DNA of 64,000 nucleotides from Nannocystis bainbridge. GTDB taxonomy: Bacteria > Myxococcota_A > Polyangia > Nannocystales > Nannocystaceae. The notes beneath the pieces were generated by a model. It searched no databases and had not been told where the DNA came from. It saw only the letters and a list, made by a program, of their open reading frames with translations. The DNA lies in the NCBI RefSeq assembly GCF_028368995.1, contig NZ_JAQNDL010000003.1, positions 704,001 to 768,000 of the forward strand, written 5' to 3'. The translations under genes were made by a program, and so were the position numbers. Shown in pieces: positions 321-38,811 of this stretch. Each line of letters opens with the position of its first letter. Position 1 is the first letter of the stretch.

Positions 321-426
321 AGGCTGTCCCGCAGGACATGTCCTTCGGGATGTCCGGCCCCGACGCCCGCTCGAGCGCTCGCTCGCAAGCCTGATTGCTG
401 TCCCGCAGGACATGTCCTCCGGGACA
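300..426 (+). repeat. Imperfect tandem duplication of the upstream gene's 3' end plus a motif pair
   Basis: ctcgagcgctcgcaagcgtgaaggctgtcccgcaggacatgtccttcggga (300-350) versus ctcgagcgctcgctcgcaagcctgattgctgtcccgcaggacatgtcctccggga (370-424). Confidence 0.8.
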
Positions 427-548
427 CTCCAAAATCCCCTCTGGCGCCCGCCTCGCCGGCCAGCGGCCTCCTCCGCGCCGCGCCGCCGCGATCGCCCGCG
501 AGTCGGACCTCGCCCGCCGCGCCGGCCCGCGCCCGCCACCCTGAACTC

Positions 549-1682
549 GTGCCGCGCCTCGCCTTTGCGACGCTCGCCGGCCTGCTCGGCGCCTGCGGTC
601 CGTCGGCCGACAGCAAAGCCCCGCGCGACGACGAGTACCCGCCGACGATCCAGCCCTACGACGACGACGACGCCGACGCGAACGCCGACCTGCCGGCGTG
701 GCATTCGCTCGGGGGGGCGATCGCCGAACCAGCCGCCACCCTGAGCGCCGACGGTCGCCTCGAGGTGTTCGTGCGCGGCCGCGACGGGGCGCTGTGGCAC
801 ATCCATCAGGTCGCGCCGAACAGCGGCTGGTCGGAGTGGAGCTCGCTCGGCGGCCGGCTCGACGGCGGCGTCGTCGTCGTCGTCGGCGAGGACGGCGACG
901 GCCAGCTCGACGTGCTCGCGCGCGGCAGCGACGGCGCGCTGTGGCACCTGCGGCAGACCGGGCCGAAGCACGCGTGGCCGAGCTGGAAGCGGCTCGGCGG
1001 GCAGCTCGTCGCCGGCGACCGGCCCTCGGTGGTGCGCGGCCTCGACGATCGCCTCGAGGTGTTCGTGCGCGCGCCCGACCGCCAGGTCCACCACCTGCGC
1101 GAGCTGCCCGGGTCGGCGTGGAGCCGCTGGTACGTGCTCCCTGGCGCCGTCGGTCCGGTCACCGCCGCGCGCGACGGCGACGGTCGCCTCGCCCTGTTCG
1201 CCCGCGGGGACGACGGTCGACTGGTGCACCGGCGCCAGCTCGCGCGCGACGGCGGATGGAGCGAGTGGACCGCGCTCGCCGGACCCATCGCCGGCCGCCC
1301 CGCGGTGGCCCGCAACCACGACGGCCGGCTCGAGGTGTTCGCTCGCACGGACGCCGGCGACCTGGGCCACGCGTGGCAGACGGCCCCGGGCGGGGGCTGG
1401 TCGCGCTGGGCCTCGCTCGGCGGCGCGCCCGCTGACCCGGTGGCGATCGCCGGGCCCGACGGCCGCCTCGAGGTGTTCACCCGCGGCCTCGACCACGCGC
1501 TGTGGCGGATCGGCCAGATCACGCCCGGCGGCGCCTGGTCGCCCTGGAGCTCGCTCGGCGGCGCCTTCGCCGATGTGCCCGCGATCGCCCCCAACCAGGA
1601 CGGCCGCCTCGAGGCCTTCGTGCGCGGCACCGACGGCGCGCTGTGGCACCGCTGGCAGACCCGCCCGGGCTGCTGCTGGTGA
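549..1682 (+). CDS. Lipoprotein, PLL-like seven-bladed beta-propeller lectin
   Basis: Lipobox LLGAC. About seven ~47-aa repeats with W-x-S-L-G-G and DGRLEVF(V/A)RGxDGxLWH, typical of the Photorhabdus PLL fucose-binding lectin repeat family. Confidence 0.8.
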   Translation: MPRLAFATLAGLLGACGPSADSKAPRDDEYPPTIQPYDDDDADANADLPAWHSLGGAIAEPAATLSADGRLEVFVRGRDGALWHIHQVAPNSGWSEWSSLGGRLDGGVVVVVGEDGDGQLDVLARGSDGALWHLRQTGPKHAWPSWKRLGGQLVAGDRPSVVRGLDDRLEVFVRAPDRQVHHLRELPGSAWSRWYVLPGAVGPVTAARDGDGRLALFARGDDGRLVHRRQLARDGGWSEWTALAGPIAGRPAVARNHDGRLEVFARTDAGDLGHAWQTAPGGGWSRWASLGGAPADPVAIAGPDGRLEVFTRGLDHALWRIGQITPGGAWSPWSSLGGAFADVPAIAPNQDGRLEAFVRGTDGALWHRWQTRPGCCW

Positions 1683-1687
1683 ACCGC

Positions 1688-1757
1688 TGCTTCGTAAAGA
1701 ATATTCGAAAGAACATGCGCAAAAGGCCATGTCCCGAAGGACATGGCCTTTGGCACC
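1688..1757. repeat. Intergenic array of 4-5 phased 14-bp palindrome units between convergent genes
   Basis: TATTC-GAAA-GAACA / TGCGC-AAAA-GGCCA / TGTCC-CGAA-GGACA / TGGCC-TTTG-GCACC in exact 14-bp register (1702-1757). Confidence 0.75.
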
Positions 1758-1771
1758 TATCTCTTATGCCA

Positions 1772-3136
1772 TCAAGCCCGGCGCGCGCGCCAGCGGTCGC
1801 GCAGGGTCTTGCCCTGGCGCCACAGCCAGATGCCGACCACCACGTAGACCTCGAGCGCGAGCAGCAGCAGCAGCGGGTCGTAGGGCGCGCGCAGGCGGGT
1901 GTCGCCGAAGTAGATCGCGGCGGTGATCATCAGCGCCACCACGTGGAGGGCGATGAGGCCGTAGTTGGCGACCGTGCGGCGCATGAACAGGGTCACGAGG
2001 CCGAGCACCACCGGCGCGACGACGAAGGTGGTGTAGAGGCCCTGCCACCAGATCGCGCGCGGGCGCCATAGGTCGCGGCCGGAGTCGGGCCACGGCGTGT
2101 TGTAGCCGGCCAGCAGCAGCATGTTGACGATGCCGTACTTGATCTGGCCGAGAATGCCGGTCTTGCGGATGCACTTGGCCATCAGCGCGTCGAGGGCCTT
2201 GGCGTCGGCGATGTAGCCGCGGTACTCGAGCTCGGGGCCGAGCGCCGGGTCGAGCTGGACCCACGAGCGCGGCGCCGTCTTGGCCCGCTTCTCGAGCTGG
2301 ATCAGCGGCGGCGGCCCGAAGCGGATCTTGCCGCGCCCGGGCTCGGTCGGCGCCGCGGTGGCCTTCTTGTTGTGGCAGCGACCGAACAGCTGGTTGAACT
2401 TGCCGTTCTCGCTGACGAGGCCGAAGCGGCCGGTGTGGTGGTGCATGCGCGCGACCGAGAACCCGAGCACCGCGATCAGCGGGATGCCGGCGAACACCAG
2501 GTGACGCCAGCGCACGTTCGGCAGCGCCTTGCGCCACACCAGCCACAACAGCCCGAACAGCGCGATCGACATCAGGATCTGCGGCCGGCAGGCGGTCGCC
2601 AGCGCGGCGGTGACGCCGGTGGCCCAGGCGTCGCGGCTGCGGCCCTCCTGGACCAGGCGGACCAGGTAGAACATCGACGCCATCATGAACACGCCGAACG
2701 GGATCTCGCTCAGCGTGTAGCCGCCGAGCGAGATCAGCGGGTAGTAGAACACCAGCAGCGTGCCGAGCAGCGGCGGGATCCACTTGCGCGGGCTGATGCG
2801 CGCCGCGATCCGGTAGGCGTAGGCGACCATGCCGGTGCCCATCAACGCGTAGGCGATGCCGATCGCGGTGAAGTTGTCCTTGCCGAACAGGTACTTGATC
2901 AGCGCCAGGATGAAGTGCGTCCCGTAGGGGAAGAACGCGTGGTACTCGTTGGGCGCGCCGAACTTGTCGACCATCTGGTCGGCCCGCGAGACGTAGCCCT
3001 TCATGTCCGAAGAGACATAGTCGCCGAGCGGGTGGACCACGAGGTTCCAGTGCAGGCGGACGAGGAAGGCGCCCAGCACGATGACGAGCGGCCAGCGGTT
3101 GCGGTAGAGCCAGTCGAGGACGCGTTGCACGGGCAC
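1772..3136 (-). CDS. Polytopic membrane glycosyltransferase, GT-C fold (ArnT/PMT, GT39-like)
   Basis: About 10 hydrophobic helices, a 'SSDMKGY' acidic loop after TM1, 'PYGTHFILA', 'LSE', 'RP' and a C-terminal 'RLRAP', all typical of ArnT/PMT-like proteins. Confidence 0.7.
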   Translation of the reverse strand: MPVQRVLDWLYRNRWPLVIVLGAFLVRLHWNLVVHPLGDYVSSDMKGYVSRADQMVDKFGAPNEYHAFFPYGTHFILALIKYLFGKDNFTAIGIAYALMGTGMVAYAYRIAARISPRKWIPPLLGTLLVFYYPLISLGGYTLSEIPFGVFMMASMFYLVRLVQEGRSRDAWATGVTAALATACRPQILMSIALFGLLWLVWRKALPNVRWRHLVFAGIPLIAVLGFSVARMHHHTGRFGLVSENGKFNQLFGRCHNKKATAAPTEPGRGKIRFGPPPLIQLEKRAKTAPRSWVQLDPALGPELEYRGYIADAKALDALMAKCIRKTGILGQIKYGIVNMLLLAGYNTPWPDSGRDLWRPRAIWWQGLYTTFVVAPVVLGLVTLFMRRTVANYGLIALHVVALMITAAIYFGDTRLRAPYDPLLLLLALEVYVVVGIWLWRQGKTLRDRWRARRA

Positions 3137-3293: not shown

Positions 3294-5435
3294 TCAGTTC
3301 TGCGGGAACTCGACCCAGTGCGCGTCGCTCAGGTCGGCGAGCGCGCTGGCCTTGAGGCCCACGTCGGACAGCGTGAACACCTGCTCGCCGATGACGATCG
3401 AGCGGCGCAGCATCGGCGAGTAGTAGCAGCCGTAGTACTCGTCCCAGCACTCCTCGACCACCGGCTCGGGGTGCTGGACCTCGCCGATCAGCGAGATGCC
3501 GTCCTCCTTGTCGACGCGGAAGCCGAACGCGCCCTGCTCCCAGGAGTAGCCGATGTTCTCGTCGTAGGTGCCCCACTCGAGCGGCAGCATCGCCAGGCCC
3601 GTCTTGCCCCACCACAGGAACGCCTTGTGGTCGAACAGCGCCTCGGACCAGCCCCAGTCGTCGCCGATCGTGGCCTTGTGCAGCTGCTTGGGCGCGGCGT
3701 CGTCGGACACGTCGAACAGGCTGAGCTGGAGGCCGAGCAGCTGGCCCTCCTCGGTGCCGTCCATGCCGACGCCGAGGATCAGATCCTCGCCTACGGGGTG
3801 GAGGTAAGCCGAGTAGCCCGGGATCTTCAGCTCGCCGGCGACGACCGGCTTGGTCGGGTCGCTGACGTCGACGGTGTAGAGCGGGTCGGTCTGGCGGAAG
3901 GTGACCACGTAGCCCTTGTCGCCGATGAAGCGCACGCCGTGGATCTGCTCGGTCTTGCCGAGGCCGCCGACCTGGCCGATCTGCTGCAGCTCGTCGCCCT
4001 CTTGGCGCAGCACGCTGACGAAGCTCTCCGAGGTGGCCTGGTCCCAGCCGAGGCTGTCGGTGCTGGCCACCCGCAGGTCGCCCTCGTGCTCCGACATCGC
4101 CCACTGGCTGAGCAGCCAGCCGCGCACCGAGCCCGACGCGACGTAGTTGGCGCGCGAGCGGTCCTGGATGTCGAACTTGTGGACGTACGTGGTGCGGCCT
4201 TGCTCCTCGGCCGAGGCCTCCGGGTCCCAGTCGGCCGGGTTCCACGGGGTCGTCGCCACGTAGAGGTTCTGCTTCGAGGCGTAGACCGTCTCGCCCTCGG
4301 AGAACACGCCGACGCCGCCGGTCGGCGCCAGGTGGCCGTCGAGGTCGACCGTCAGCACGCCGAGGGTCGAAAGGCCCGAGTACTCGCCGGTGTGCATGAC
4401 ATCGTCGCAGGCCAGCAGCACGCCGCTGGTGACCGCGGCTTGCCCGTTGGACATGTCCTCACGGACATAGCGCGGCAGCCAGTTCTCGATCGTCGAGGCG
4501 TCGATGACCGAGCTGTTGTGCACCTTCGACTGCGCCAGCGCGATCTTCCACATGTGCTCGTAGAGCGCCTCGGTGCCGCCGCCCTGCTCGAACGCCGAGT
4601 AGTCGAAGAACTCGTACGGGTCCTTGAACTTCAGGCCGTTCGGGGCCGAGCGCACGACCACGCGGGCGACGCCTTCGACCATGCGGGCGCTGACCAGGTC
4701 GCCGGTGATGTGGAGGTTCGACACGATCTTCATCGCGTCGGGGTTGGCGATGTCGACCTCGATCAGGCGGGTGATGCCGGCGTAGTAGTCGGGGCCGAAG
4801 TACTGCTGGAGGTCGACCCCGGCCGGCTGCGGCGCGCCTTCCCAGTCGCCGTAGTAGTACGGCGAGCTGCGGACCAGCAGCAGCGCGCGGTCCTCGTGCA
4901 TGAACAGCTGCGCGTCGCGGACGTCGGCGCCGATCTCGAGCGAGCTGCGCAGGGTCGGCGAGGCGCCCGACGCGTCGACGAAGTGGAGCCTGCCGCCCGC
5001 GAACGCCAGGATCCGCTCGCCGTCGGTCTTGACGATGTCGGGCTCGTCGACGCCCGCCTCCTGCACGTTGGTGCCGGAGTAGTCGTCGCCCTCGACGCCG
5101 CCGTTGTCGCCGCCGTCCTGCGGGGCCTCGCCGCCGTCGCCGCCGCTGGACTCGCCGCCGCTGTCGGTGCCGCCGGTGGAGAGGCCGCCGCCGTCACCGA
5201 CAGGATCGCCGAACCAGCCGCTGCTGTAGTCGTAGCCCTGAAGGTTGCCGTACTTCTCGATCAGGCCCTTGGCCTCGCCCTTGGTGTACCCGAGCAGGTC
5301 GTCGCAGCTGTCGAAGCCGTAGAGGACGCGCGGGTTGAGGTCGCCGCCGCCGGGCGACTCCCGGTCCGAGCAGCCGGTGGCGAGGGCGCCGAGGAAGAGG
5401 AAGGCGGGGAGCGCGAGCGCGTAGGGGCGGGACAT
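3294..5435 (-). CDS. Secreted lipoprotein with a C-terminal beta-propeller domain (Beta_propel family)
   Basis: Start MSRPYALALPAFLFLGALATGC (lipobox). Hallmark motifs TNVQEAGVDEPDIVKTDG, VRFIGDKGYVVTFRQTDPLY, GELKIPGYSAYLHP and SEALFDHKAF. Confidence 0.85.
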   Translation of the reverse strand: MSRPYALALPAFLFLGALATGCSDRESPGGGDLNPRVLYGFDSCDDLLGYTKGEAKGLIEKYGNLQGYDYSSGWFGDPVGDGGGLSTGGTDSGGESSGGDGGEAPQDGGDNGGVEGDDYSGTNVQEAGVDEPDIVKTDGERILAFAGGRLHFVDASGASPTLRSSLEIGADVRDAQLFMHEDRALLLVRSSPYYYGDWEGAPQPAGVDLQQYFGPDYYAGITRLIEVDIANPDAMKIVSNLHITGDLVSARMVEGVARVVVRSAPNGLKFKDPYEFFDYSAFEQGGGTEALYEHMWKIALAQSKVHNSSVIDASTIENWLPRYVREDMSNGQAAVTSGVLLACDDVMHTGEYSGLSTLGVLTVDLDGHLAPTGGVGVFSEGETVYASKQNLYVATTPWNPADWDPEASAEEQGRTTYVHKFDIQDRSRANYVASGSVRGWLLSQWAMSEHEGDLRVASTDSLGWDQATSESFVSVLRQEGDELQQIGQVGGLGKTEQIHGVRFIGDKGYVVTFRQTDPLYTVDVSDPTKPVVAGELKIPGYSAYLHPVGEDLILGVGMDGTEEGQLLGLQLSLFDVSDDAAPKQLHKATIGDDWGWSEALFDHKAFLWWGKTGLAMLPLEWGTYDENIGYSWEQGAFGFRVDKEDGISLIGEVQHPEPVVEECWDEYYGCYYSPMLRRSIVIGEQVFTLSDVGLKASALADLSDAHWVEFPQN

Positions 5436-5883
5436 AACGAGTTCTCCGAGTGCGAGGGCGACCGGGCGGCCGCGACCTTGAAAGGTGAGGGTCGCCGGGG
5501 GGTCTCCGCAGCGATGCCGCCCCTTCAGCACGCTGCGTGCCAACGGCTCCCGGAGGCCACTGGCGGGCTTCGCGGCGGTTTTGGCCGGACCCGCGCGCCC
5601 GGGGCCCGCGGCACTGCGACCCAGGCGCCCGGACATCGACGCCAGCCCGCGGCGCCGCCGCTGCGACGATCTTTTCACGAGCCAACTCACGAGGTGCAGC
5701 CGGCTGCTCCGCCCGGGTGTGCGGGGTGGCTGCCGGGCGGCGCAGCGTCCGCCGCCGCAGACGCGCTGCGAACTTCCGCTCACACCTCAGAGAAACATAA
5801 AGACAGGTCCTTTCGGACATGTCCGTTGGAACATATGTGCATTGACCGCCAGGGCCTGAAGCTCGCAGCGGGCGCCTCGCCGC

Positions 5884-7016: not shown

Positions 7017-7213
7017 TCAGATTCGCCCGCGCCTAGCGCCTCACGCGCACCGCACACCTGTCCCTTGTGACAGGTGCCGCAATTGTCCCAGCCACGCCCC
7101 GCGGCGCCGCGACGGTCCCGCGCCACCGCACACACGGCCGCCGACGTGACGCAGATTGCTTGTCGCGTCGGCGGCCTTTCCTACTTTGGGAGGCGTTACA
7201 GGGGGGGCATTGT

Positions 7214-9121: not shown

Positions 9122-12100
9122 ATGACTCCGTTCGAATTGCTCCCGCACGGCGGGCTCGACCAATCGATCCTCATCCCGGTCCTGGTCGGGGTCTACGTCG
9201 CCCTGCTCTTCACCGAGACGTTCGGCTGGGTGTTCGTCGGCCTGGTCGTGCCCGGCTACCTGGCGTCGGTGCTGGCGCTGCAGCCGACCACCGCCGCGGT
9301 GATCGTGCTCGAGGCGATCGTCACCTACCTGCTGGCCCGCGGCCTGGCCTACGCGCTGGCGCCGACCGGCGTGTGGGCGCCGTTCTTCGGCCGCGACCGC
9401 TTCTTCGTGATCGTCCTCGCCAGCGTGCTGGTCCGCCAGCACGACCAGCTGTGGATCTTGCCGGCGCTGTCGTCGTGGCTCGAGCTGCAGATGGGCACCG
9501 AGCTGCCGCCCGTGCGCGAGTTCTACAGCATCGGCCTGGTGCTGGTGCCGCTGACGGCCAACATGCTGTGGAAGCCGGGCCTCTTGCGCGGGCTCGGCCC
9601 GCTCGCGGTCGTCGTCGGCCTGACCTACGCGATCCTCGAGCTGGTCCTGCTGCCGCTGACCAACCTGTCGCTGTCGTCGTTCGAGCTGCTCTACGAGGAC
9701 AGCGCGATCGACTTCCTCGGCCACGCGCGCGCCTACGTGCTGCTGCTGACCACCGCGACGCTGGCCGCCCGCTTCAACCTGCGGTACGGCTGGGACTTCG
9801 GCGGCATCCTCGTGCCGGCGCTGCTCGGCCTGCTGTGGTTCACGCCGATCGAGATGATGGTGACGCTGGCCGAGGCCTGCATCCTGTGGAGCATCACCAA
9901 GCTGCTGCTGCGCTACACCCCGCTGAAGCGCTACAACCTCGAGGGCCCGCGCAAGCTGGCGCTGGTGTTCACCCTCAGCGTCGCGCTCAAGTGGCTGCTG
10001 TCGCTGATCGTCAGCGTCGCCATGCCCGGCGTGCGCGCCCGCGAGCTGTTCGGCTTCGGCTACCTGCTGTCGACCCTGCTGGCGATCCGCATGCTGCCGA
10101 AGAAGGCGACGCGGCGGGTGCTGCTGCCGACCATCACCACCGCGTTCGCCGGGTGGCTGATCGGCAGCGCCCTCGGCCTCGGCCTCGACATCGCCGCGCC
10201 GGTGCCGACCCCGGTGCCGGCCTTCAACCCGCGCAACACCAGCGATCGCCTGCTGCGCAGCGAGGCGGGCGCGCTCGCGCTGGGCCACGTGCGCGCCGAA
10301 CTCGCCCCGCCGCGCCTCGACGCGCCGCCAGCGTCCGCGCTCGTCGCCCACGCTGAGGCCTGGTCGGCGCTGGCCGCATGGATCGCCGCGCCGACCGACG
10401 ACGCGGCCGCGACCGCCCGCGACGCGGCCGCCCGCGCCGACCTCGGCATCCACGCGATGAGCGCCCCGACCGGTCTCTTCCACCATGTCTCTTACGCCAT
10501 CTCACCGATCGAGCGCGGGGTCGTGCACACCAGCTGGCCGTCGGCGCTGGTGGTGCCCGGCGCGAGCGGGCCGGCGATCGTGGTCCCGCGGCCGGTCGCC
10601 GAGGCGCCCGCCGCCGAGGCCGCAGGCCCGCTGTGCGCCGCGCTGGCGTGCCGCCTCGTCCTCGTCGCCGGGCGCGATCAGGTGCCCGGCGTGATCGACA
10701 TGACCTTCTCGGCCGCGCTGGCGCGCCTCGCCCCCGAAGGCGCGGTCGAGCTGCGCGCCGACTTCGACGCCCCGCCCGGACAGCCGCTCGTCCACCTCGA
10801 GGCCGCCGCGCCGATCGGCGCGCCGGCGCTGCAGCCGACCAGCCCGCGCGGCGTGGCCGGCCTGCCGCCGATGGCCGTGGCCGAGGGCGCCCCGCCGCTG
10901 CTGCTCGGCGCCCCGTGGGGCGAGGGCCGCCGCGCCGTGGTGCGCATGCACCCCGAGACGATGCGCGCCAGCCTGCTGCAGGGCGCGCCCGAGATCCGCA
11001 GCGCCCCCGCGCTGATGCCGTGGCTCGCCGAGCAGGTGCGGGCGTGGAGCGAGCGGCCCGACAGCGGCCTGGCCGCGCCGTCGGTCGCCGAGCTGACCTT
11101 CCTCGAGCGCCACGTCGCCGAGCCGCTGATCCACGGCTTCACCGAGGACCGCGCGCTCGCGGCCCGGTTCGCCCGCCTGGTCGACGCCGAGGTGTGGCAG
11201 CTGCGCGACTGCGGCTCGCGCCGGCCGTGCCGCGCCCTCGTGGCCGGCGGCGAGATCCTGGTCCTCGGGACAGGTCCCTCCCGGCTCGTGATCGAGGCCA
11301 TCCGCGTGCCCGAAGAAGCCGGCACCTGGCGCCTCGCCGCCGAGCTGTTCAGCGCCGCCAGCGGCCGCGCGCTGCTGATCGCCATCAGCCGCTCGGGCGC
11401 CGGCATGTCGGCGTTCACCCCGGCGCAGGCGCTGCACCAGGCGCTGTCGGCCGACGAGGCCGGGACCCCGCGCACGATCGTGCAGATCCGCGGCCTCGGG
11501 GCCCGCCCCGGCGCGCCCGCCGACGCGCTGGCGATCGGCCGCCCGCGCGCCGGCATCGGCGAGCTTCCACCTGTCCTCGCGGACATGTTGACCATGTCCG
11601 GCCCGCTGGCGTTCGTGCCGCGCTGGCGCCTGCTCGAGGACGCCCCCGAGCTGGCCGCGCTGGTCGGCGTGCGCGACGCCTTGATCGCCTTCTCGGCCGC
11701 CTTCACCGCCGACGCCGCCGCCATCCTGTGGTTCCCGCCCGCCCTGCGCCGCGTCTACGCGCTCGGCGACCCGTGCCTCGACCTGCGCCGGCTGTCGGCG
11801 CTCGACCTGGTCCCGACCGGCCGCAGCTGCGGCGCGTGGGTCCGCGACGAGGCCGCGCTGGCGCTCGGCGGGGTCGCGCCCGGCGCCCAGGATGCCCGAA
11901 CGGTCATGTCCAAAAAGACAGCTCAGGACGACCCTCCGGCGCGTCGCCAGGCCGCCGAGGCCCGCGCCGCCGCGGCCCGCGCCAAGGCGGGCCCTGGCGT
12001 CACCGTCACCACCACCGCCGACTTCATGGCCGCGCTGGCGCAGGTCGAGGCCTACGCCGAGTCGAACAACCTCCACTGGTTGCGCCTGGTGCTGGCCGAG

Positions 12101-15147: not shown

Positions 15148-17302
15148 TTCCCCCGATCACCTCATGTCTTATGGGACATGTCCTCATGGGCATGTCTTAA
15201 AAGACACTATTTTGGCCTCCCCGGCCCCCCTCTGTCCTCGCGGCCGCGCGGCCCCGGCGGTTACATGTCCCTCCGGACAGGTCACATCGCCGCCCGCGAA
15301 GCCCCCGGGCGGCCGCTCGCACCTCGCCGCGACGCACGCCCCGGGTCAGCCGATCCCTCTCCCGGCCGCCCGCGCCTATCCCCCCGCCTCGCCCGTCATC
15401 CCGCCCGGAGCCCCGCCCCCGCCCGCTGCGAGCCGGCCCGATCGCGGGTCCGCGTCGACCGCCGCGGGCCAGGGCGACCCGCGCCTCGCCGTGGCCGCGA
15501 CCCTGCTCGACCCGCGGCTCGTGGCCCTGAGCCAGGCGCCGCAGGTCCGCCCGCCCGCCGTCCCCGGGCGGCCCGCGGCGCCGATCGCCCGCCCGCTCGC
15601 CGGCCCCGCAGAACCGCCCGCCGTCCCCACCTGTCCCCCAGGACATCTTAAAAATTCTCCCCCGCGCCCGCCCGCCTATCCCTCGGGACAGCTCGCAAGC
15701 CCCCGCTCGGCGCCCCTCATCGCCAGCCCATCGCCAGGCCTACGGCCCACCTACCCCTCGGGACAGCTCGCCATTACCCCCGCGTCGCCCAGCTCTTGTC
15801 CCGCCCTACAAGCCACCTGTCCCGCGGGACAGCTCGCCCATTCACCCTCCCCGACCGCGAGCCCGTCACTCGCCCTACAAGCCACCTATCCCTCGGGACA
15901 GATCGCCAGCTCGCCTGCGGCCCTGCCGGCAGCGAACCCATCCATCGACCCGCGCTCGCGCCCCGCCGCCCCGCGCCCGCCCGCCGTGCCTGCCCACCCG
16001 GCCCGGGCCGCGCGCCCCCCCGGCCACCCCGCCCAGCTCGCCGCCGGCGGTCCGCTGCAGCCTCCGCTCGCCACCTGTCCCGCGGGCCAGCCCGCCCACC
16101 TCCGCAACACCTGTCCTGAAGGCCAGCCGAGCTCCCCGCTCGCCGACCCGCCGCCGCGCCCGCCGGGCGCGCGCGGCTGGGCCATCGTCCTCGCGCTCTC
16201 GGCCGGCTGCCAGGGCAGCACCTGCGACTGCACCGACCCCGACCGGCCCGGCTGGGGCGCGCGCGCCCTGTTCAAAAATGACCGTACGGACATGCCCCCA
16301 TGGACAGGTCCCGAAGACCAGCCTGCCTCGGCCGCGCTGACCGGCGAGCGCCCGCGTCCGCCGGCCCGGCCGCTCGACGCCTACACCATGATCGACCCGA
16401 CCGAGCTCCGCCAACGGCTGTGGACCGAGCCGCCGCCGCCCTTCTACGTCCCGCCGACCCCCGAGCGCACGGCCGCCTTCGAGGCGCTGATGCGCGGCCT
16501 GCTGGCCACGCCGACCCCCGAGCCCGAGGCGCTCGGCGAGCTCGCCTGGGCCGCCGGTTACGAGGTCCACGCCTGGTACGTCTCCGGCCAGCGCCTGCTC
16601 GCCGCCGTCGAGCCGCGGACCCAGCAGACCGGCGGCGGCGCCTACCTCGTGCGCGTCGACGACGGCCCGGCCGCCGCCGCGCGCCCCGTCATCCTCCAGG
16701 CCCCGCACGCCTTCCACGACCTCGGCACCGAGCGGATCGCCCTCGCCCTGGCCCTGCGCGGCGACGGCTGGCCGCGCGCGCTGTTCGTCAACACCGTCCA
16801 CCGCTACCTCGACACCGACGGCCAGCGCCGCGAACGCGACGGCGCCCCCGCCGACCCCTGCCACAACCCGCAGCATTTATTCTCGGTCGCCACCGCCGCC
16901 GCGCTCGACGCCCTGCCGCGCGTCGAGGTCGTGCAGATCCACGGCTTCAGCGAGGACGACGAACCACTCGGCCCCGCCGCAGTCGTCAGCGCCGGCGACC
17001 GCGTCGCCGCCACCACCCGCACCCGCGAGGTCGCCCAGCGCCTGCGCGGCGGCCTCGGCGTCGAGGTCGCCCTGTTCCCCGACGACCGCACCCGCCTCGG
17101 CGCCACCGCCAACGCCCAGGGCCGGCTGGTCCGCTCCCGCGGCGGCGCGGCCCGCTTCGTCCACATCGAGCTGTCGCACGAGCTGCGGCGGCGGATCCAG
17201 CGCGACGCGCGGGCCCTGGCCAGCCTGGCCGAGGCGCTCCGCCCCGACCCCCGCGACCCCGATGAAACGCTCGGCCTCGGCCCGCCCTCGCGCCCGCTCT
17301 GA
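15137..17302 (+). CDS. Putative zinc hydrolase lipoprotein (PghP/poly-gamma-glutamate hydrolase- or N-formylglutamate amidohydrolase-like) with a ~340-aa low-complexity N-terminal insertion
   Basis: Motifs VILQAPHAFHDLGTE, VQIHGF, NAQG and FVHIELS. Lipobox-like WAIVLALSAGC (Cys codon 16208). Residues ~5-340 are Pro-rich with repeated CPxG(H/Q). The true start is uncertain. Confidence 0.6.
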   Translation: MTTDSPDHLMSYGTCPHGHVLKDTILASPAPLCPRGRAAPAVTCPSGQVTSPPAKPPGGRSHLAATHAPGQPIPLPAARAYPPASPVIPPGAPPPPAASRPDRGSASTAAGQGDPRLAVAATLLDPRLVALSQAPQVRPPAVPGRPAAPIARPLAGPAEPPAVPTCPPGHLKNSPPRPPAYPSGQLASPRSAPLIASPSPGLRPTYPSGQLAITPASPSSCPALQATCPAGQLAHSPSPTASPSLALQATYPSGQIASSPAALPAANPSIDPRSRPAAPRPPAVPAHPARAARPPGHPAQLAAGGPLQPPLATCPAGQPAHLRNTCPEGQPSSPLADPPPRPPGARGWAIVLALSAGCQGSTCDCTDPDRPGWGARALFKNDRTDMPPWTGPEDQPASAALTGERPRPPARPLDAYTMIDPTELRQRLWTEPPPPFYVPPTPERTAAFEALMRGLLATPTPEPEALGELAWAAGYEVHAWYVSGQRLLAAVEPRTQQTGGGAYLVRVDDGPAAAARPVILQAPHAFHDLGTERIALALALRGDGWPRALFVNTVHRYLDTDGQRRERDGAPADPCHNPQHLFSVATAAALDALPRVEVVQIHGFSEDDEPLGPAAVVSAGDRVAATTRTREVAQRLRGGLGVEVALFPDDRTRLGATANAQGRLVRSRGGAARFVHIELSHELRRRIQRDARALASLAEALRPDPRDPDETLGLGPPSRPL

Positions 17303-17374
17303 CCTGTCCTTCGCGACATTTCCCTCGGGACATGTCGCGCGTCGCTCTCGGCCCCTCCCCCGCAGGAGCACCCC

Positions 17375-20300: not shown

Positions 20301-22770
20301 CCCTCGACGCCCTCGCGCCCGCGAGCGCCCCCGCCGCGTCCGACATGTCCCAAAAGACACCCGGACGCTCCTCGCCCGCCACGAAGGACATGTCCCAGGG
20401 GACATCCCGAGAGCCCGCCGCGTCCTCCCGCCGCCCCGCCGCGCCTGCGAGCGCCGCCGCCGCCTCCTCGCCCGGGGGCCTCGCTCCGGCTGCCGAAAAG
20501 GACATGTCCCGAGGGACATCCTCGACCTCCCTCGCTCCGGGCGACCTGTCCTCGCGGCCATCCTCGCTGCTCGCCGCGCCTACGGCCGCCGCGTCCTCGA
20601 CCCCTGGCGACCTGTCCTCTCGGACATCCTCGCACGACCTGTCCCCCGGGACAGCCAAAGCCCTCCCATTGAAACCACCCGCCCGCCCGCAGGCCGACCC
20701 GGCCGAGCTCGCGCTGCGGGCCGCCCTGCTCGACGCCGCCGCGCGCCCCGACGAGGCCTTCCGCGCCTGGCACCGGGTCTACGCCGCCACCGATCGCTGG
20801 CAGGTCGGCCTCGCCGGCGTGCGCAGCGCCCTCGCGGCGCTCGACGAGCCTGCCACCAGCCCCGTCGGCGCCGGCCTCGCCTACGGCCTGGCCCTGCGCG
20901 TCCGCCCCGCGATCCGCACCCCCGCCCTCGACCGCCTCGCCAACATCGCCGGCGAGCGCAGTCGCTGGTCGCACCTGATCCTCAGCGAGGAACGCGGCAG
21001 CCGTGAGCACGTCGACCTGCCCAAGAAGCCCGCGCCCGCCACCGGCACCGCCGACACCCGCGCCACCTTGCTCGCCGCCCCGTTCCCGGCCAAGGGCGCC
21101 CTCATGCTGCGCCCCGGCGTGCCCGTGCTGATCGACCTCGCCCGCGGTCACGACGCGCTCGGCTTCGAGCTGTGGTGCCGCGAGGTCCGCCCCGAGCTCG
21201 GCGGCGTCGCCCCCAGCGTGCGCTTCTGGATGGGCGAGGAATTGCTGCACACCCAGGCCGTCGCCGCCGGCACCCTCACCCTCGCCGAGTTCGCGGTCCC
21301 GGCCCGCGACGCCGTCACCCTCGAGCTCGACGACGCCAGCCACGCCTACCTGTGCCTGGCCCGCCTGCGCCGCCCCGAGGCCCGCCAGACCGCCCGCACC
21401 GACCGCTGGCACGTCGCCCGCGCCCGCCGCCCCGTCGAGTTCATCGTCCTGGGCCCCACCACCGTCCAGATCGAGGTCCACGGCCACGCCGTCTCCGACG
21501 TCAGCGTCGCCCTCGCCCGCGGCAGCGAGCCGTTCGGCCCAGCCCGCCCGCTCGGAAGTCTCTCGGGACATGTCCCTTCGGGCCTGGCCCAAAATTCCAA
21601 AGACCTCACCCTGCACCCGCCGATCCAGGTCCTCACCCTCGCCGACTCCGGCCCGCTGCGCATGCGCCTGGCCCCCGGCGTCGGCTCGGCGATGGTGCGC
21701 GTGCACCAGCGGCTCGACGCCGAGGCCGAGCCGCCGCCGCCGCGACCGCCGCGGCGGCGCCCGGCTCGCCTGGCCGAAGAGACAGCTCCACCCGCCCCCG
21801 CGCCGCACCCCACCCCCGCCGTGCCGCCGGACCAGCGCCACGTCCAGAAATTCGGCACCCCCTACGTCGACCTCCACCTCGGCACCGACGACCTCGAGGA
21901 CAGCGACGACCTGCGCCCGCGCGCCTCCGGCATCATCCGCCTCGGCTGGGCCCGCGAGCTGCTGGCGCGTCGCCTGTGGATCGAGGTCAACCCCGAGCTG
22001 CGCCCGCGCGAGGGCACCGCTCTGGTCGCTGGCGGTCGCCTCGGCTTCCAGGCCCTGTTCCCCCGCGCCGGCCTGCGCGCGTGGGTCAGCGCCGCCGGCC
22101 TGGTCCAGACCGAGCACGCGCTGCAGCCGTGGAGCCTGCGCGCCGAGGGTCGCCTCGATCGCCCGACCTGGCTGGCCCCGCGCCTGCAGCTGTTGCCCGG
22201 CCTCGACCTCGCCTACCGCTACCAGTCGCTCGCCGAGGGCCACGGCTTCGCGCGCGGCGAGCTGCACCCGCGCGTCTACCAGTGGTACGTCGAGGATCAT
22301 CCGCTGGTGTTCCGGCCGACCCTCGACCTGCGGGTCGTCGCCTGGCAGGACGCGCGCGTGGTCGTCGGCGCCGACATGATGCCGAACAGCGACTTCCGCA
22401 GCGTCGACCAGGTCAGCATGCACGCCGGCATCGCCGGCGCCCTCGCCCTCTACGGCCGCGTCGTCCCCGAGTTCGCGCTCGACTACGAGGCCTCCCTGCG
22501 GCTCGCCGATCCCGACCGCCAGAAGACCTACCTGCGCAGCCGGATCCTCGCCGGCCTCGGCGTCGGCATCTGGCTCACCGACGGCGTCCGCCTCGCCTTC
22601 GGCGTCCGCAACAACCTCTACCTCTCCTCGCTGTACCCGGCGCGCAACGGCCTCGACCTGTGGCTGCGCCTCGACCTGCCCCTCGGTCGTGGCTTGCGCG
22701 ACTTCGGCCCGCTCGAGATGCCCTTCCGCGCCGCCCGCGAGCACCGCCTGTGGCGCCAGGAGCCGACACC

Positions 22771-22774: not shown

Positions 22775-27336
<4,562 letters not shown>

Positions 27337-28558: not shown

Positions 28559-28564
28559 ACGCTC

Positions 28565-32143: not shown

Positions 32144-32439
32144 CAAGGGCCGTCGGCGGCGCGGCGCGGACCCCAGGTCTTCCCGCTCGCCCGCTTCGCG
32201 AGGTCGATCTTCGCACCCAAACGGGCCGAGCTCCGCTGCTCGCCCGCGGAAACGATCTCCCGCTCGCGTCGCCGACCGGTCTGCCCCTCTCCCCCAAACC
32301 TCAGCGCGCTCCGACCCGGCCCCGCAGCCATGGCCCGGTCGGAGCGCGTCTCTCTTTCTCCCTCTTCTGAGATGAAGAGGAGCTGTCCCCCAGGACAGCT
32401 CTCCCTCTCCCCCACCTCACGCGCTCCGGTCGGCCCCCA

Positions 32440-32534
32440 CACCCACGGCCGGCCGGAGCGCGCCTCCGTTCAAGCTCTGTCCCCCGATTCGCCCCGCACC
32501 CACGCCGGAGCGCGCCTCCGTTCAAAGCTCTGTC
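32440..32534 (+). repeat. Intergenic ~30-40 bp direct repeat (2 copies)
   Basis: gccggagcgcgcctccgttcaa(a)gctctgtc at 32452-32481 and 32504-32534, each preceded by cacccac. Confidence 0.75.
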
Positions 32535-32669
32535 ATCGACCTGTCTCTCGGGACATGCCATGCTCCAGCGCGCCGCTGGAGCACGGCAGCCAGCGGCTGC
32601 CGCGCACGCTCGCTTTCGCGGCTCCCGCTCCGGAATCACCTGTCCCTCGAGACATCCGGTGATTCCCGC

Positions 32670-34838: not shown

Positions 34839-35031
34839 GTCGTGGCCATGGCCCCGGCTGCGCTTGCGCGCCAGCGGCCGGGCCGTCGCCGGCCGCTCGC
34901 CGGCACCTCGGGACATGTCCTTCAGGACATCTTGCTGCGATTGCGGTCATCGCCGCGCCCGCCCCGGCCCCGGGCGCGCTGGCACGGGCGCGAACGGGCC
35001 GGTCCGGCGCGCTTCGGCTATCCTGCCGGCC

Positions 35032-37377: not shown

Positions 37378-37496
37378 GCGCGCGATACGGCCACCGGCAA
37401 GCCCCTGCCGGGCGCCTGGCCGCCGCGCCTGCCGTGAGCGCGCGATACGGCCACCGGCAAGCCCCTGCCGGTGAATGGCCGCCGCGCCTGCCGTGA
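37318..37496 (+). repeat. Three tandem ~60-bp copies of the kinase 3' end including its stop codon
   Basis: gcgcgcgatacggccaccggcaagcccc(a/t)gccgg..ggccgccgcgcctgccgtga, three times (60, 60 and 59 bp). Confidence 0.92.
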
Positions 37497-37719
37497 ACCT
37501 TCGACATGTCCGAACGGACATGTCCGAAGATTCCGCCCCGCCACGCCGCGCGAATGCCGTCCGCGCCCGCCCACAGCGCCTCAGGCCGCCGCCGCAGCAG
37601 CCGTCCTCCGCCTGATTCACGCAGCGTGCGCGCGAGGCCACGCGTCCTCGGTCGACCCCCGATGCGTCTCACCGCAATGCGTGTTCGTCGCCGCCGATCT
37701 TCCGCGGTATGGTCCGCCG

Positions 37720-38421
37720 ATGCATCGCGGAATCATTACCCTTGCCATCGTGCTCACGGCCGCCTGCGGCCCCGGAAAATCCGACGACACCGAGACGGGC
37801 GAGCCCACCACCGCCGCCACCACCGAGACGGACCCGCCGACCACCGGCACCACCACGAGCACGGGCGATCCGCCCACCGGCACCACCGATACGACCACCA
37901 CCGGCACCGCCGGCTCGAGCACGACCTCGGAGCCGGGCACCAGCATCGGGACCACCGGCGACTCCGAAGATTTCGACCAACTCGGCGCCTGCGCCGTGCC
38001 CATGGTGTGCGAGGAGTTCTTCCACGGCGACGGCGAGGCTCAGGGCCACTGGGACGGGCCCGAGGGCTTCCTCGACATCGAGCGCTGCATCCTCACCGGC
38101 CTGCGCGACGCCACCCCGGGCCGCTACGTCTACGGCATCAACACCCAGGTCGCCAACGGCGGCTCGCTGGACAAGGCCAACATCATCGTCCACGCCGATC
38201 GCACCGTCACCTTCGCCGAGCACTTCTCGGGCAGCTTCTTCGACAGCGACACCGACAGCAGCACCGAGGTGTTCACCCCGGCCCAGACCTGTACGATCGT
38301 CGACGCCGCGTTCTTCGACAATTGCTTCGAGAACCACGACGATTGGTCGCACTACGCCGAATGCATGAAGATCGAGAAGTGGTGGACCGACTGCGTCGCC
38401 ATGGGCCCCCGCTGCGAATAA
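37720..38421 (+). CDS. Hypothetical lipoprotein (Thr-rich linker plus Cys-containing domain)
   Basis: MHRGIITLAIVLTAAC lipobox, a T/G/D-rich stalk and 8 Cys in the globular part. Confidence 0.75.
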   Translation: MHRGIITLAIVLTAACGPGKSDDTETGEPTTAATTETDPPTTGTTTSTGDPPTGTTDTTTTGTAGSSTTSEPGTSIGTTGDSEDFDQLGACAVPMVCEEFFHGDGEAQGHWDGPEGFLDIERCILTGLRDATPGRYVYGINTQVANGGSLDKANIIVHADRTVTFAEHFSGSFFDSDTDSSTEVFTPAQTCTIVDAAFFDNCFENHDDWSHYAECMKIEKWWTDCVAMGPRCE

Positions 38422-38811
38422 CCGCGCCGCCGCCTCGAGTCCTCGTCGATGCCTCGCGCCTGAACGCGAGGACATGTCCATTCAAACATACGCACAGGCG
38501 CCGGTGTCGTGCCCGCGAACGCGAGCCCATGGGCCGGCTTCGGCCGACCGAATCATGAGACTCGCTTCCTGCCCGTTCGAGCGACGCATTCCAGCCGTCC
38601 GCGCCGGCGATCGGATGCGGGTGCTCGTGGATCGCCCCACCCGGTGATCCGCGAGCCCTGCGCGACCCAGTCCTCAAAGGCAGACAGACCCCGCCGAATC
38701 CCCCGAACACGCCCGAATGGCGCCTCCCCGCGGCCCCGGCCCCGCCGCAACCAGCCCCTCGCCACCGCAGCCTCCACACCTCATCTCGCCGTTGCGATCG
38801 CCCCCCGGGGG

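Follow-up and report, generated by a model that had tools for sequence, protein, structure and literature searches.

A genus-restricted 14-bp palindrome, TGTCC-N4-GGACA, forms phased arrays 3' of protein genes in Nannocystis bainbridge

The 11-Mb genome of Nannocystis bainbridge carries 1,987 exact copies of the palindrome TGTCC-N4-GGACA, spread over all five contigs, set in exact 14-bp phase and most frequent just past stop codons. In our judgement there is about an even chance that the motif is the recognition site for a putative symmetric DNA-binding protein that binds cooperatively. A literature search retrieved no published description of the motif.

Abundance, spacing and phasing

In the window, i.e. 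the whole stretch of 64,000 nucleotides analysed here, we counted 20 exact copies between 325 and 37520; shuffled sequences averaged 0.03 copies and none of 100 reached 20. Allowing one mismatch gave 46 sites in 1-38,600 versus none in 38,601-64,000, in agreement with the preliminary description of this DNA, which had put about 40 loci, roughly one per kb, in 38 kb. With up to two mismatches the whole window holds 83 sites. Genome-wide, the spacers N0-N3 and N5-N12 gave 0-16 matches each compared with 1,987 for N4; 12.8 (about 13) N4 sites were expected from half-site frequencies, and a reversed-pattern control gave 3 matches. The comparison of N4 with other spacers and with expectation, to which the preliminary description had pointed, thus came out firmly for N4. 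Up to one mismatch, the genome total rose to 6,245, with 4,258 one-arm variants versus the 1,987 perfect sites.

Units abut head-to-tail at 325/339, 399/413, 4440/4454, 5806/5820, 11893/11907, 15165/15179/15193, 16279/16293, 17305/17319, 18028/18042, 19819/19833, 20491/20505, 21557/21571 and 38461/38475. Across the genome, half-site pairs were enriched only in the 14-bp register, whether inverted (N4 1,987, N18 379, N32 243), everted (N0 956, N14 638) or direct (N9 682, N23 315), while the out-of-register spacings tested gave 2-35 pairs each; the exact 14-bp abutment claimed earlier is therefore borne out both in the window and genome-wide. Arrays reach 8 strictly phased units, and 58% of exact units (1,145/1,987) stand alone. 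With 23,769 copies, the half-site TGTCC/GGACA falls mid-range among the 30 pentamers that share its composition (7,136-72,755), and about 42% of its copies have an N4 partner. Given that the isolated half-site is not over-represented, we concluded that the palindrome is the unit. Regions richer in GC have a higher motif density (rho 0.47). Neighbouring units have the same spacer in 3.1% of pairs, versus 1.3% for random pairs, and certain arrays repeat almost perfectly. Together, the data confirm the original observation and make it stronger than first described. The loci of the window are these:

325..352: two abutting units, exact then two-mismatch, 5 nt past the TGA of ORF 3-320; fold -17.1 kcal/mol, z -3.2
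399..426: a pair of exact units meeting at a GGACATGTCC junction, in a duplicate of about 74 bp of the gene end and unit at 300-352
1702..1757: array between the convergent ORFs 549-1682 (+) and 1772-3136 (-); fold -26.3 kcal/mol, z -5.3; central exact unit 1730-1743 lies in GGCCATGTCC-CGAA-GGACATGGCC; orthologues retain the arms and differ in the spacer
3004..3017: one-mismatch unit in the PMT-like glycosyltransferase gene 1772-3136 (-), identical in 5/5 orthologues
4440..4467: double unit in the beta-propeller gene 3294-5783 (-); 4454-4467 exact in this genome only, orthologues reading GGTCC, so that a G-to-T change (Leu to Met, coding strand) made the perfect unit
5792..5847: array in the divergent, promoter-side gap between 3294-5783 (-) and 5934-7016 (+); fold z 0.2; position kept in 5/5 relatives, spacers drifting
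7059..7072: one-mismatch unit 43 nt past the stop at 7016
11572..11585: exact unit in the CapC-like ORF 9137-12310 (+), read ccT-GTC-CTC-GCG-GAC-Atg; arms kept in 5/5 orthologues, spacer changing (TCGC, TCTC, TTTC)
11893..11920: double unit (two and one mismatches) near the end of the same CapC-like ORF 9137-12310 (+), kept in 5/5 relatives with the first spacer in four versions
15165..15206: three abutting units starting 17 nt past the stop at 15147; TRF period 14; fold -25.2 kcal/mol, z -7.3
15233..16125: nine units (15233 to 16112), mostly CCACCTGTCCC-NN-GGGACAGCTCGC, in C-rich, non-coding DNA that includes a 69-bp tandem repeat (15747-15908); no alignment in five relatives
16279..16320: one-mismatch array (TGACC..GGACA, TGCCC..GGACA); fold z -0.4
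17305..17332: double unit starting 2 nt past the stop at 17302
18028..18055: double unit, first arm TGACC here and in 5/5 relatives; on the minus strand a hairpin followed by a T-run
19768..19931: units 19768, 19819/19833 and 19918 in a short stretch poorly conserved between species
20346..20653: seven-unit cluster (five exact) filling a gap absent from relatives; conserved blocks stop at 20336 and restart at 20676
22974..26253: four units in ORF 22771-27336 (+), 22974 and 26240 one-mismatch, 24354 and 25101 exact; arms kept in 5/5 orthologues at 22974, 24354 and 25101, substitutions codon-periodic near 22974 and 24354; at 26240 one of five orthologues (G003) has TGGCC as first arm
32384..32654: three intergenic units, placed between the sigma-70 gene 30905-32143 and the ORF that follows; 32384 with a stem of 10 bp, fold -17.7 kcal/mol
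34916..34929: intergenic exact unit, with ORF 34152-34838 (-) on one side and the kinase gene 35032-37377 (+) on the other
37507..37520: exact unit with GGACATGTCC junctions; a 60-bp gene tail occurs in triplicate, and the unit lies 11 nt past its third copy
38461..38488: final double unit, each member with two mismatches, lying where the syntenic block ends; synteny with relatives stops near 37.4-38.4 kb
38600..64000: no copy at 0-1 mismatch; ordinary gene content by Pfam (sulfatase, RND efflux pump, P-type ATPases, PPDK); of 38600-58500, searched in five relatives, scattered pieces match and synteny is lacking

Position relative to genes and conservation among relatives

By the calls of a crude GC3-based gene caller, which merges genes and clips starts, sites concentrate directly 3' of protein-gene stop codons: an array lies within 30 nt past the stop of 17% of ORFs and within 100 nt of 26%, compared with 1/102 (p 2e-7) and 8/102 (p 6e-6) tRNA genes. 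None of the three 5S rRNA genes carries a unit, and all three end in a canonical hairpin and T6 run. A site is found in 56% of convergent, 27% of tandem and 16% of divergent gaps, and exact sites per kb number 1.50, 0.59 and 0.23 in these gaps, respectively, and 0.05-0.08 in coding DNA. Arrays begin in register with the stop, with peaks at -3 and +2 and the TGA inside the first unit; in tandem gaps the median distance to the upstream stop is 82 nt. This pile-up, the strongest positional fact, had been missed in the preliminary description.

Every compartment is far above chance. Divergent gaps hold 133 exact sites, and 761 of the 1,987 exact sites lie in called genes, at least 475 of them with strong GC3 periodicity on both sides. 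Inside ORFs the frame preference is 2 > 1 > 0. The exact units 4454, 11572, 24354 and 25101, inspected by eye, all read nnT-GTC-Cnn-nnG-GAC-Ann, and at 11572, 24354 and 25101 the third-codon-position T is kept in 5/5 orthologues. The conserved in-ORF sites (3004, 4454, 11572, 12827, 17766, 20061, 22974, 24354, 25101 and 26240) fall in six or seven genes; the earlier count of at least seven was thus correct in placing sites within genes and somewhat too high. Long ORFs over 15.1-16.1 kb and 19.75-20.65 kb were discounted, as alignment with five relatives revealed no conserved coding sequence there.

Alignment of orthologous sites from five species showed 91.1% identity in the arms (1020/1120), compared with 80.8% in the flanks (1809/2240; Fisher p 1e-15 for arms against flanks) and 73.9% in the spacer (331/448). 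The conservation at orthologous sites, proposed as a check earlier, was therefore found; the arms evolve under purifying selection and the spacer drifts. Some one-arm variants (3004, 18028, 22974) are also kept across species. All 10 other Nannocystis genomes searched carry the motif (114-2,090 copies); two sister genera have 87 and 161 copies and the remaining 18 relatives at most 7. The motif thus characterises Nannocystis as a genus. The motif-rich part of the window, 1-37.4 kb, is syntenic in 5/5 relatives (three query segments). Four stretches lacking any copy with 0-1 mismatch were tested, two in the window (38.6-58.5 kb and 27.35-29.83 kb) besides L087 and L088, and all are non-syntenic accessory DNA, mosaic or present in some relatives only; the islet at 27.35-29.83 kb is present in 2/5 relatives, and one of the mosaic regions holds multi-copy, IS-like pieces. 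Enrichment in the core genome with absence from recent acquisitions is also the pattern by which DUS and USS are recognised.

The high copy number, the mainly extragenic location and the occasional tandem duplication of units, seen as identical adjacent spacers, would suit a mobile element such as a RAYT-mobilised REP, a MITE or an IS end, an origin that we consider extremely improbable. A search for Y1_Tnp/RAYT (IS200/IS605-like; PF01797) gave no match in the N. bainbridge genome (90.5% complete), while 6 of 14 control genomes matched. We compared 1,567 loci, each with 120-bp flanks, by all-against-all BLAST and inspected the three best-connected ones; these matched other loci only within the 14-bp-period array and shared no flanks beyond it, and a MITE or IS terminus was rejected on this ground. 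The preliminary description had staked its reading on the motif not being the terminus of a known IS, MITE or REP family, and neither RAYT nor shared flanks turned up. The 189 different spacers, the orthologous positions across five species, the absence from the mosaic accessory regions tested, including the one with IS-like pieces, and the origin of unit 4454 by point substitution also speak against a mobile element.

Half-site preferences, RNA folding and the possible reader of the motif

The spacer takes 189 of the 256 possible tetramers, which fits the earlier statement that spacers vary freely as far as breadth is concerned; the freedom is limited by a bias to Y as first base (78% of sites) and R as last (76%) and by enrichment of A/T-containing over GC-only spacers, TTCG/CGAA being the most enriched (8.3-fold). 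With the other positions at consensus, G2/C13 are near-invariant (at most 25 variants each) and T3/A12 and C5/G10 are tolerant (up to 461 variants). The full half-site approximates R-C-(A/C)-T-G-T-C-C-Y-Y. Half-sites vary almost independently: the mutual information amounts to 0.013 bits over the spacer, 0.07 over the junction and at most 0.03 in the flanks, and the palindrome does not extend beyond what half-site preferences account for. These values (0.013-0.07 bits) speak against the compensatory changes and stem extension expected of a hairpin selected for its structure. Compensatory changes are rare and single-arm variants far commoner than compensated pairs; the only compensated excess is TGCCC..GGGCA, observed 146 times versus 86 expected from marginal frequencies, or about 60 by a hand estimate from single-variant counts. 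The spacer is symmetric relative to transcription, i.e. the loop has no strand preference.

Multi-unit arrays in the window fold at -17 to -26 kcal/mol (z -3.2 to -7.3), single units weakly at -5.7 to -8.2 kcal/mol, and two arrays (5792-5847, 16279-16320) no better than shuffles. Downstream of 637 oriented sites we found no T enrichment of the kind expected of intrinsic (Rho-independent) terminators; a T-run is present on the minus strand at two of the window's arrays. Few ORFs are followed by a canonical T-tract terminator: 357 genes in sense versus 241 in the antisense control, of 8,029. It is conceivable, if on balance unlikely, that the arrays are REP-like hairpin modules acting in mRNA. 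Transcribed arrays would fold past the stop, adjacent GGACATGTCC decamers giving 10-bp stems; the hairpins would shield mRNA 3' ends from exonucleases or aid termination as clusters, and a hairpin-specific RNA-binding protein may impose the common sequence. The ORF-specific location near stops, the ranking of gaps (convergent > tandem > divergent), the stability of the arrays, the paucity of T-tract terminators and the prominence of the UUCG-type spacer all agree with this, and post-stop hairpin clusters have been proposed as terminators in work described in PMC8355165. It is harder to reconcile with the 58% of exact units that stand alone and fold weakly, the two arrays indistinguishable from shuffles, the near lack of covariation and stem extension, the strand-indifferent loop and the exact sites in ORFs (at least 475) and divergent gaps (133). 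Moreover, one mismatch would break the 5-bp stem, yet one-arm variants are twice as frequent as perfect sites and some are conserved.

Symmetry of five bases on either side of a free 4-bp centre is shared by the sites of many enzymes whose cuts are staggered by 4 nt, and the motif might be a place where a nuclease, recombinase, topoisomerase or restriction-modification enzyme cuts across N4, as its target or its footprint. The enrichment at the ends of convergent genes is consistent with such an enzyme, as positive supercoils would have to be relieved there. We regard it as very improbable, since restriction targets are usually avoided and the motif is enriched 150-fold, no enzyme has been linked to the motif, and it is not obvious what use these enzymes would have for arrays phased at 14 bp.

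The distribution also resembles that of a tag marking native DNA, of the DUS/USS or HIP1 kind. The motif would then be favoured by a protein active in DNA uptake, recombination or methylation-coupled repair, selection or molecular drive would slowly spread it through resident DNA, and it would survive best in permissive places such as gene 3' flanks and tolerated codon frames. Consistent with this are the frequency of about one site per 1-2 kb on all contigs, the restriction to one genus with a gradient into two sister genera, the presence in all compartments with the frame preference in ORFs, the conservation of orthologous sites, the rise of density with GC, and the synteny of the motif-rich 1-37.4 kb in 5/5 relatives beside four of four motif-free stretches that are mosaic or confined to some relatives. 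Neisserial DUS are described as following the same pattern, in the core genome, missing from recent acquisitions, in permissive locations and as inverted pairs in terminators (PMC2397512), and HIP1 sites as likewise conserved within and between ORFs (PMC5861425). The lone half-site is not enriched, which argues against a monomeric uptake word (DUS and USS are asymmetric words over-represented as single copies); strictly phased arrays of up to 8 units are unneeded for tagging; and the stop bias, judged against tRNA flanks, exceeds what permissive location would predict. No C5 methylase was found in the genome, and the 12 matches to N6_N4 methylases are non-discriminating, the family being present in 30 of the 31 genomes searched. 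Taken together, a native-DNA tag seems to us a doubtful explanation.

The reading that we prefer is that a symmetric, probably dimeric, sequence-specific protein would read the motif as double-stranded DNA, recognising each arm separately, with G2/C13 and C4/G11 as critical contacts. The 4-bp centre would count only by shape, which we propose as the reason for the Y...R spacer ends and the A/T-rich centre. Because units abut at exactly 14 bp with a GGACA/TGTCC junction, neighbouring dimers could touch and load cooperatively on arrays of 2-8. Sites occupy every compartment of the long-resident chromosome and accumulate at places that tolerate them and where they probably act, outward from the stop codon and most of all between convergent genes. 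Arrays placed there would flag the ends of genes, serving as a roadblock or insulator, as a topological barrier or as a nucleoid anchor.

In favour of such a protein we count the rigid N4 spacing and 14-bp phase; the conservation of arms, position-dependent tolerance, conserved one-arm variants and near-nil covariation; the spacer symmetric to transcription, the lack of a T-run and of enrichment of the half-site alone; the excess in all compartments and the third-position T kept in ORFs; and the lack of flank similarity between loci and of a Y1 transposase. Myxococcus CdbA, a ribbon-helix-helix nucleoid protein described as abundant and as having a GC-rich motif of repeats spaced by 4 bp, offers a precedent (PMC7156744). 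Against it we count that our analysis found no candidate protein; that the location, the stop-codon register and the array hairpins of -17 to -26 kcal/mol resemble an mRNA 3' element; that TGCCC..GGGCA is in excess and TTCG/CGAA is the top spacer; and that the gene statistics come from a crude GC3-based caller. The pile-up at stop codons and the avoidance of tRNA and rRNA ends and of accessory DNA keep REP-like roles in mRNA and DUS- or HIP1-like roles alive. The cooperative dimeric DNA-binding protein suggested in the preliminary description accordingly gains from the arm selection, half-site independence and rigid spacing, while the protein itself is still putative.

Comparison with known systems

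The likeness to parS, Noc NBS, SlmA SBS and matS drawn earlier fails on number and distribution, the two features compared: the motif has thousands of sites on all five contigs, whereas they have a few to about 100 sites in one chromosomal domain. REP/BIME elements of enterobacteria and pseudomonads, which are RAYT-mobilised, share with the motif short palindromes in hundreds to thousands of copies, arrays clustered in gene 3' flanks and the ability to form mRNA hairpins. REP/BIME elements bind proteins such as gyrase and IHF. The motif differs in its 14-bp unit, free 4-bp centre and strict 14-bp phase, in the lack of a RAYT match, in positions orthologous across species and in not being extragenic only (761/1,987 exact sites in called genes, at least 475 copies in ORFs). 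In its abutting symmetric units it can be likened to ribbon-helix-helix operator arrays (MetJ met-boxes, omega heptads), where linkerless units are read cooperatively by neighbouring dimers; those are few, local promoter operators, compared with thousands of sites at gene ends here.

Like HIP1 (GCGATCGC) of cyanobacteria, the motif is a hyper-abundant, lineage-typical palindrome of coding and non-coding DNA, conserved at orthologous sites; HIP1 is described from most cyanobacteria and the motif is confined to one genus, and the function of HIP1 is presented in that source as likewise unresolved (PMC5861425). HIP1 is a contiguous 8-mer reported to be tied to two orphan methylases (PMC4390886, PMC13756078), while the motif is bipartite, with phased arrays and a strong gene-end bias. 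DUS of Neisseriaceae are described, like the motif, as occurring about once per kb, enriched in the core and missing from recently acquired DNA, commonest in permissive places yet conserved, and often placed as inverted pairs after genes (PMC2397512). DUS and USS (Neisseriaceae and Pasteurellaceae) further resemble the motif in occurring as lineage-specific 'dialects', by the account of PMC2397512 and PMC3630211. A DUS is an asymmetric 10-12-mer working as a single copy, unlike the motif with its unenriched half-site, fixed spacing and arrays of up to 8. The CdbA motif of Myxococcus xanthus, compared by description only, is unlike ours in that it is a direct repeat, gave 569 ChIP peaks and is weakly specific; it is like ours in being a myxobacterial, GC-rich, sequence-biased motif of two repeats 4 bp apart, with sites both in genes and between them (PMC7156744).

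Abundance and phasing of the palindrome

Searching the N. bainbridge genome (GCF_028368995.1; 11.05 Mb in five contigs, 71.5% GC), we found 1,987 exact copies of TGTCC-N4-GGACA, while each of the other spacer lengths from N0 to N12 gave 0-16. The half-site frequencies predict 12.8 copies, an enrichment of about 150-fold; the pattern read backwards occurs 3 times, and the half-site alone is not over-represented. The window holds 20 exact copies compared with 0.03 expected from dinucleotide shuffles, all of them before position 37,520. With one mismatch allowed, 46 sites lie within 1-38,600 and none past 38,600, so the density claimed in the preliminary description, about 40 loci in 38 kb or roughly one per kb, holds. 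For N4 the genome holds 4,258 sites with one mismatch and 7,530 with two; the controls give about 250 with one (N3 and N5) and 2,058-4,617 with two (N3, N5 and N6), an excess indicating that the true family comprises some ten thousand sites, or roughly one in each kb.

The arms extend outward as R-C-(A/C)-TGTCC...GGACA-(T/G)-G-Y. The earlier claim that spacers vary freely holds only in part; 189 of the 256 tetramers are in use, but their choice is biased: the first base is a pyrimidine at 78% of sites and the last a purine at 76%, and relative to generic intergenic CC-N4-GG, spacers with A or T are enriched (most of all TTCG/CGAA, 8.3-fold) and GC-only spacers depleted. About half of the units run into a neighbour across a GGACA-TGTCC junction, a decamer present 956 times compared with 0-86 for control palindromes. 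The exact 14-bp head-to-tail period seen in the window extends to the whole genome, where enrichment is confined to everted pairs at N0 (956) and N14 (638), direct pairs at N9 (682) and N23 (315) and inverted pairs at N4 (1,987), N18 (379) and N32 (243), all in the 14-bp register; every other spacing tested gave 2-35. Chaining units of at most two mismatches at 14-bp steps, with at least one unit of at most one mismatch required, yielded 4,102 singles, 1,100 doubles, 289 triples and 146 arrays of 4-8 units. Neighbouring units share the same spacer in 3.1% of pairs, compared with 1.3% of random pairs; recent tandem duplication is obvious in a few arrays but not in most. Because the spacers differ, TRF detects just one 14-bp array in the window.

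Larger duplications were observed beside units in the window. The last 60 bp of a Ser/Thr kinase gene, including its TGA, stand in three tandem copies of 93% identity (37318-37496) with an exact unit 11 nt past the triplicated tail, and a duplication of ~74 bp comprising a gene end and its unit (~300-426) resembles this triplication. Arrays may promote local duplication.

Position relative to genes

Genes were called with a crude caller of our own, a log-odds score of GC by codon position, which cuts starts short and merges some genes into one; its 8,039 calls cover 82% of the genome. By these calls, 761 exact sites fall within genes and the other 1,226 between them. Exact sites per kb amount to 1.50 in convergent, 0.59 in tandem and 0.23 in divergent gaps and to 0.05-0.08 in coding sequence, each density far exceeding chance, and 56%, 27% and 16% of convergent, tandem and divergent gaps, respectively, carry a site with at most one mismatch. 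In tandem gaps the median site is 82 nt from the upstream stop versus 213 nt to the next start, and the gradient from the upstream stop is monotonic, also in gaps longer than 300 nt. An array follows the stop within 30 nt in 1,375 of the 8,039 ORFs (17%) and within 100 nt in 2,103 (26%); upstream of ORF starts the counts are 201 and 578. Array starts peak at -3 and +2 from the end of the stop codon, registers that place the TGA inside the first unit (TGACC or TGACA). The confinement to intergenic DNA grows with array length and reaches 91% for arrays of at least four units.

Downstream arrays are rare at tRNA genes (1/102 within 30 nt and 8/102 within 100 nt; Fisher p 2e-7 and 6e-6 versus ORFs). 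No unit follows any of the three 5S rRNA genes, all of which are followed by a canonical GC hairpin, GCCCCCTTCGTAAGAAGGGGGC, and T6:

Contig C1, 2062846-2062962: 5S rRNA gene with downstream GCCCCCTTCGTAAGAAGGGGGC-T6 terminator
Contig C1, 4462953-4463069: 5S rRNA gene with downstream GCCCCCTTCGTAAGAAGGGGGC-T6 terminator
Contig C5, 64878-64994: 5S rRNA gene with downstream GCCCCCTTCGTAAGAAGGGGGC-T6 terminator

Thus the organism does use U-tract terminators for stable RNA. T-rich tracts past ORF stops are barely more frequent than in the antisense control (357 versus 241, of 8,029).

Inside genes, 475 exact sites are flanked on both sides by strong codon-position GC periodicity and divide among the frames as 265, 162 and 48, the favoured one being nnT-GTC-Cnn-nnG-GAC-Ann. 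Since the in-phase spacer controls N1, N7 and N10 total 0, 2 and 11 genome-wide, the enrichment in coding sequence is real. Window sites 4454, 11572, 24354 and 25101, read by eye from the sequence and ORF starts, are all in the favoured frame. At the last three the T at the third codon position is retained in five of five orthologues, NNT codons being rare in this genome given its GC3 of ~0.9; at 4454 a single G-to-T substitution created the perfect unit in N. bainbridge. When substitutions were tested for codon periodicity, a clean classification was reached for only part of the sites, since several proteins encoded here are fast-evolving. The window also contains very large ORF regions without a Pfam match at E <= 1e-5 (12310-15147, ~17375-22774 and 22771-27336), the second of which is probably several genes parted by palindrome clusters.

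Conservation and restriction to resident DNA

The 46 window sites with at most one mismatch were compared with their orthologues in five Nannocystis species, and comparisons were kept if BLAST aligned the site and 10 nt on each side. In this sample of one 38-kb block from five related, non-independent species, with an alignable subset skewed to coding and conserved DNA and many intergenic arrays in unalignable stretches, identity was 91.1% in the arms (1020/1120), 80.8% in the 10-nt flanks (1809/2240) and 73.9% in the spacer (331/448; p 1e-15 for arms versus flanks and 0.001 for spacer versus flanks). Alignable intergenic arrays (1730, 5806/5820, 7059, 34916) keep their place and arms, with spacers that are different in nearly each species. 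Judged from these alignments, selection on the arms is clear. Window stretches 15.16-16.14 kb and 20.34-20.67 kb are unalignable among the five relatives. A 1-kb non-coding region at 15148-16140, unalignable among the five species, is strongly C-rich on the + strand, studded with copies of CCACCTGTCCC-NN-GGGACAGCTCGC, and includes a 69-bp tandem repeat (15747-15908).

Synteny at 85-93% identity with five Nannocystis genomes extends from position 1 to ~37.4 kb of the window. The region 38.6-58.5 kb, with only scattered matches in the relatives, is devoid of sites with at most one mismatch, and so is an islet at 27.35-29.83 kb present in two of the five relatives. The ORFs of the islet may form a defence gene pair:

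Window 27380-28558, within the islet (27346-29834): AAA_21/AbiEii-like ATPase
Window 28565-29374, within the islet (27346-29834): ORF without a family match

Two more 20-kb regions without a copy at up to one mismatch, picked from the density map, are also mosaics, and one of them holds multi-copy IS-like pieces. The motif distinguishes resident from acquired DNA and in practice tells native from foreign stretches of Nannocystis genomes. Its density tracks regional GC (rho 0.47 across 550 bins of 20 kb). Window positions 10000-38000 combine an unusually high GC (75-78%) with a GC skew that stays negative (-0.13 to -0.23); in the accessory part past 38.5 kb, GC is ~70% and the skew close to zero. 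Dozens of paralogues of the gene at 39878-41110, which encodes the cysteine-rich repeat DUF4215, lie scattered through each Nannocystis genome searched, with 67-78% identity.

Among the 31 related genomes searched, exact copies number 114-2,090 in N. bainbridge and all 10 other Nannocystis genomes, 87 and 161 in two sister genera, and 0-7, the level of their controls, in the remaining 18. In a scan of one genome per species the matches name the genus Nannocystis. Outside it, the abutting double unit was detected once per genome in ~15 Mesorhizobium species (search loci L003, L029 and ~13 others), plus three stray MAGs. The Mesorhizobium locus is a 28-bp palindrome built of the same two units; of the two loci fetched, it is perfect in L086 (1501-1528), where by our reading of the translations it sits between two ORFs resembling glycosyltransferases, and has one mismatch in L085. 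It is unrelated to the Nannocystis element.

Putative readers of the motif and likeness to known elements

When the remaining nine positions match the consensus, hardly any variants occur at G2/C13 (at most 25), and any base is accepted at T3/A12 and C5/G10 (up to 461 variants). One-arm variants outnumber compensated pairs, the sole compensated excess being TGCCC..GGGCA (146 observed versus 86 from marginals and, by hand arithmetic, ~60 from single-variant ratios). Mutual information amounts to 0.013 bits for positions paired across the spacer, 0.07 for those paired across the junction and at most 0.03 at flanking positions; past the three flanking positions, complementarity is no higher than random. 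Orienting 637 tandem-gap sites by their upstream gene revealed no significantly strand-biased spacer, multiple tests allowed for, and no T-run downstream. Predicted fold energies of single units are weak (-5.7 to -8.2 kcal/mol), and multi-unit arrays mostly fold well (-17 to -26 kcal/mol), two being no better than shuffles. Together, the arm-variant, covariation, strand, fold and half-site results point to symmetric, sequence-specific recognition of each arm rather than to a selected stem, and contacts between adjacent readers would agree with the rigid 14-bp phase.

We give an even chance to a putative symmetric DNA-binding protein that would load cooperatively on gene-end arrays. Its main rival, a REP-like element acting in mRNA, would agree with the closeness of sites to stops, their specificity to ORFs and the scarcity of canonical terminators, but the half-sites behave independently, one-arm variants are abundant and conserved, and sites also occur in ORFs and divergent gaps, so that we consider it rather unlikely. 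A tag of native DNA, in the manner of DUS or HIP1, would account for the contrast between core and accessory DNA, for sites in all compartments and for the restriction to the genus; it leaves unexplained both phased arrays of up to eight units and the absence of monomer enrichment, and we regard it as unlikely. The DNA methylase profile of the 31 genomes does not follow the motif distribution. We found little support for the target of an enzyme cutting with a 4-bp stagger, which seems very improbable, and least for a mobile element: the preliminary description had kept in view the terminus of an IS, MITE or REP family, but our search found no RAYT/IS200 transposase and the loci have no common flanks. 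A larger element around the motif was rejected, as flank clustering matched only within arrays.

The putative cooperative protein could also be conceived more specifically, though this seems quite unlikely, as a lineage-specific dimer polymerising on stop-codon arrays, a protein-based system for marking gene ends in Nannocystis. Such a dimer would polymerise on arrays strictly phased at 14 bp, which in about a quarter of ORFs start at the stop codon, and the arrays would serve as roadblocks or insulators for transcription in both directions, or as topological barriers. They would replace U-tract terminators, used at rRNA operons and hardly after protein genes in this 71%-GC genome, and lone sites in ORFs and promoters would belong to this network with low occupancy.

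REP, HIP1 and DUS/USS each opened a piece of genome biology, and the function of HIP1 is still debated after 30 years. A search of Rfam with the whole window matched 0 families, and a full-text literature search, with subscription journals outside its coverage, found no printed description of the element. The motif is a new, unusually clean case of a highly iterated short sequence: bipartite, with a free centre and a rigid 14-bp phase. It could lead to a new and abundant myxobacterial factor binding DNA or RNA, and to an understanding of how very GC-rich bacteria delimit transcription units; it is also relevant to the engineering of Nannocystis biosynthetic gene clusters. It is like REP/BIME in location but differs in that no RAYT was found and that it is not purely extragenic. 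HIP1, whose conservation is described by Xu et al. (PMC5861425), is similar in ubiquity and conservation; unlike the Nannocystis element, it is a contiguous palindrome with known cognate methylases. The likeness to DUS lies in the core-genome bias, the same core-versus-accessory and compartment pattern being described for DUS by Treangen et al. (PMC2397512), but DUS is a monomeric word and the Nannocystis element is not. Among myxobacteria, an abundant nucleoid protein that reads a motif has a precedent in CdbA, a ribbon-helix-helix protein with 569 ChIP peaks and a motif of two repeats 4 bp apart (PMC7156744); that motif is described as a direct repeat, whereas the Nannocystis motif is a palindrome.
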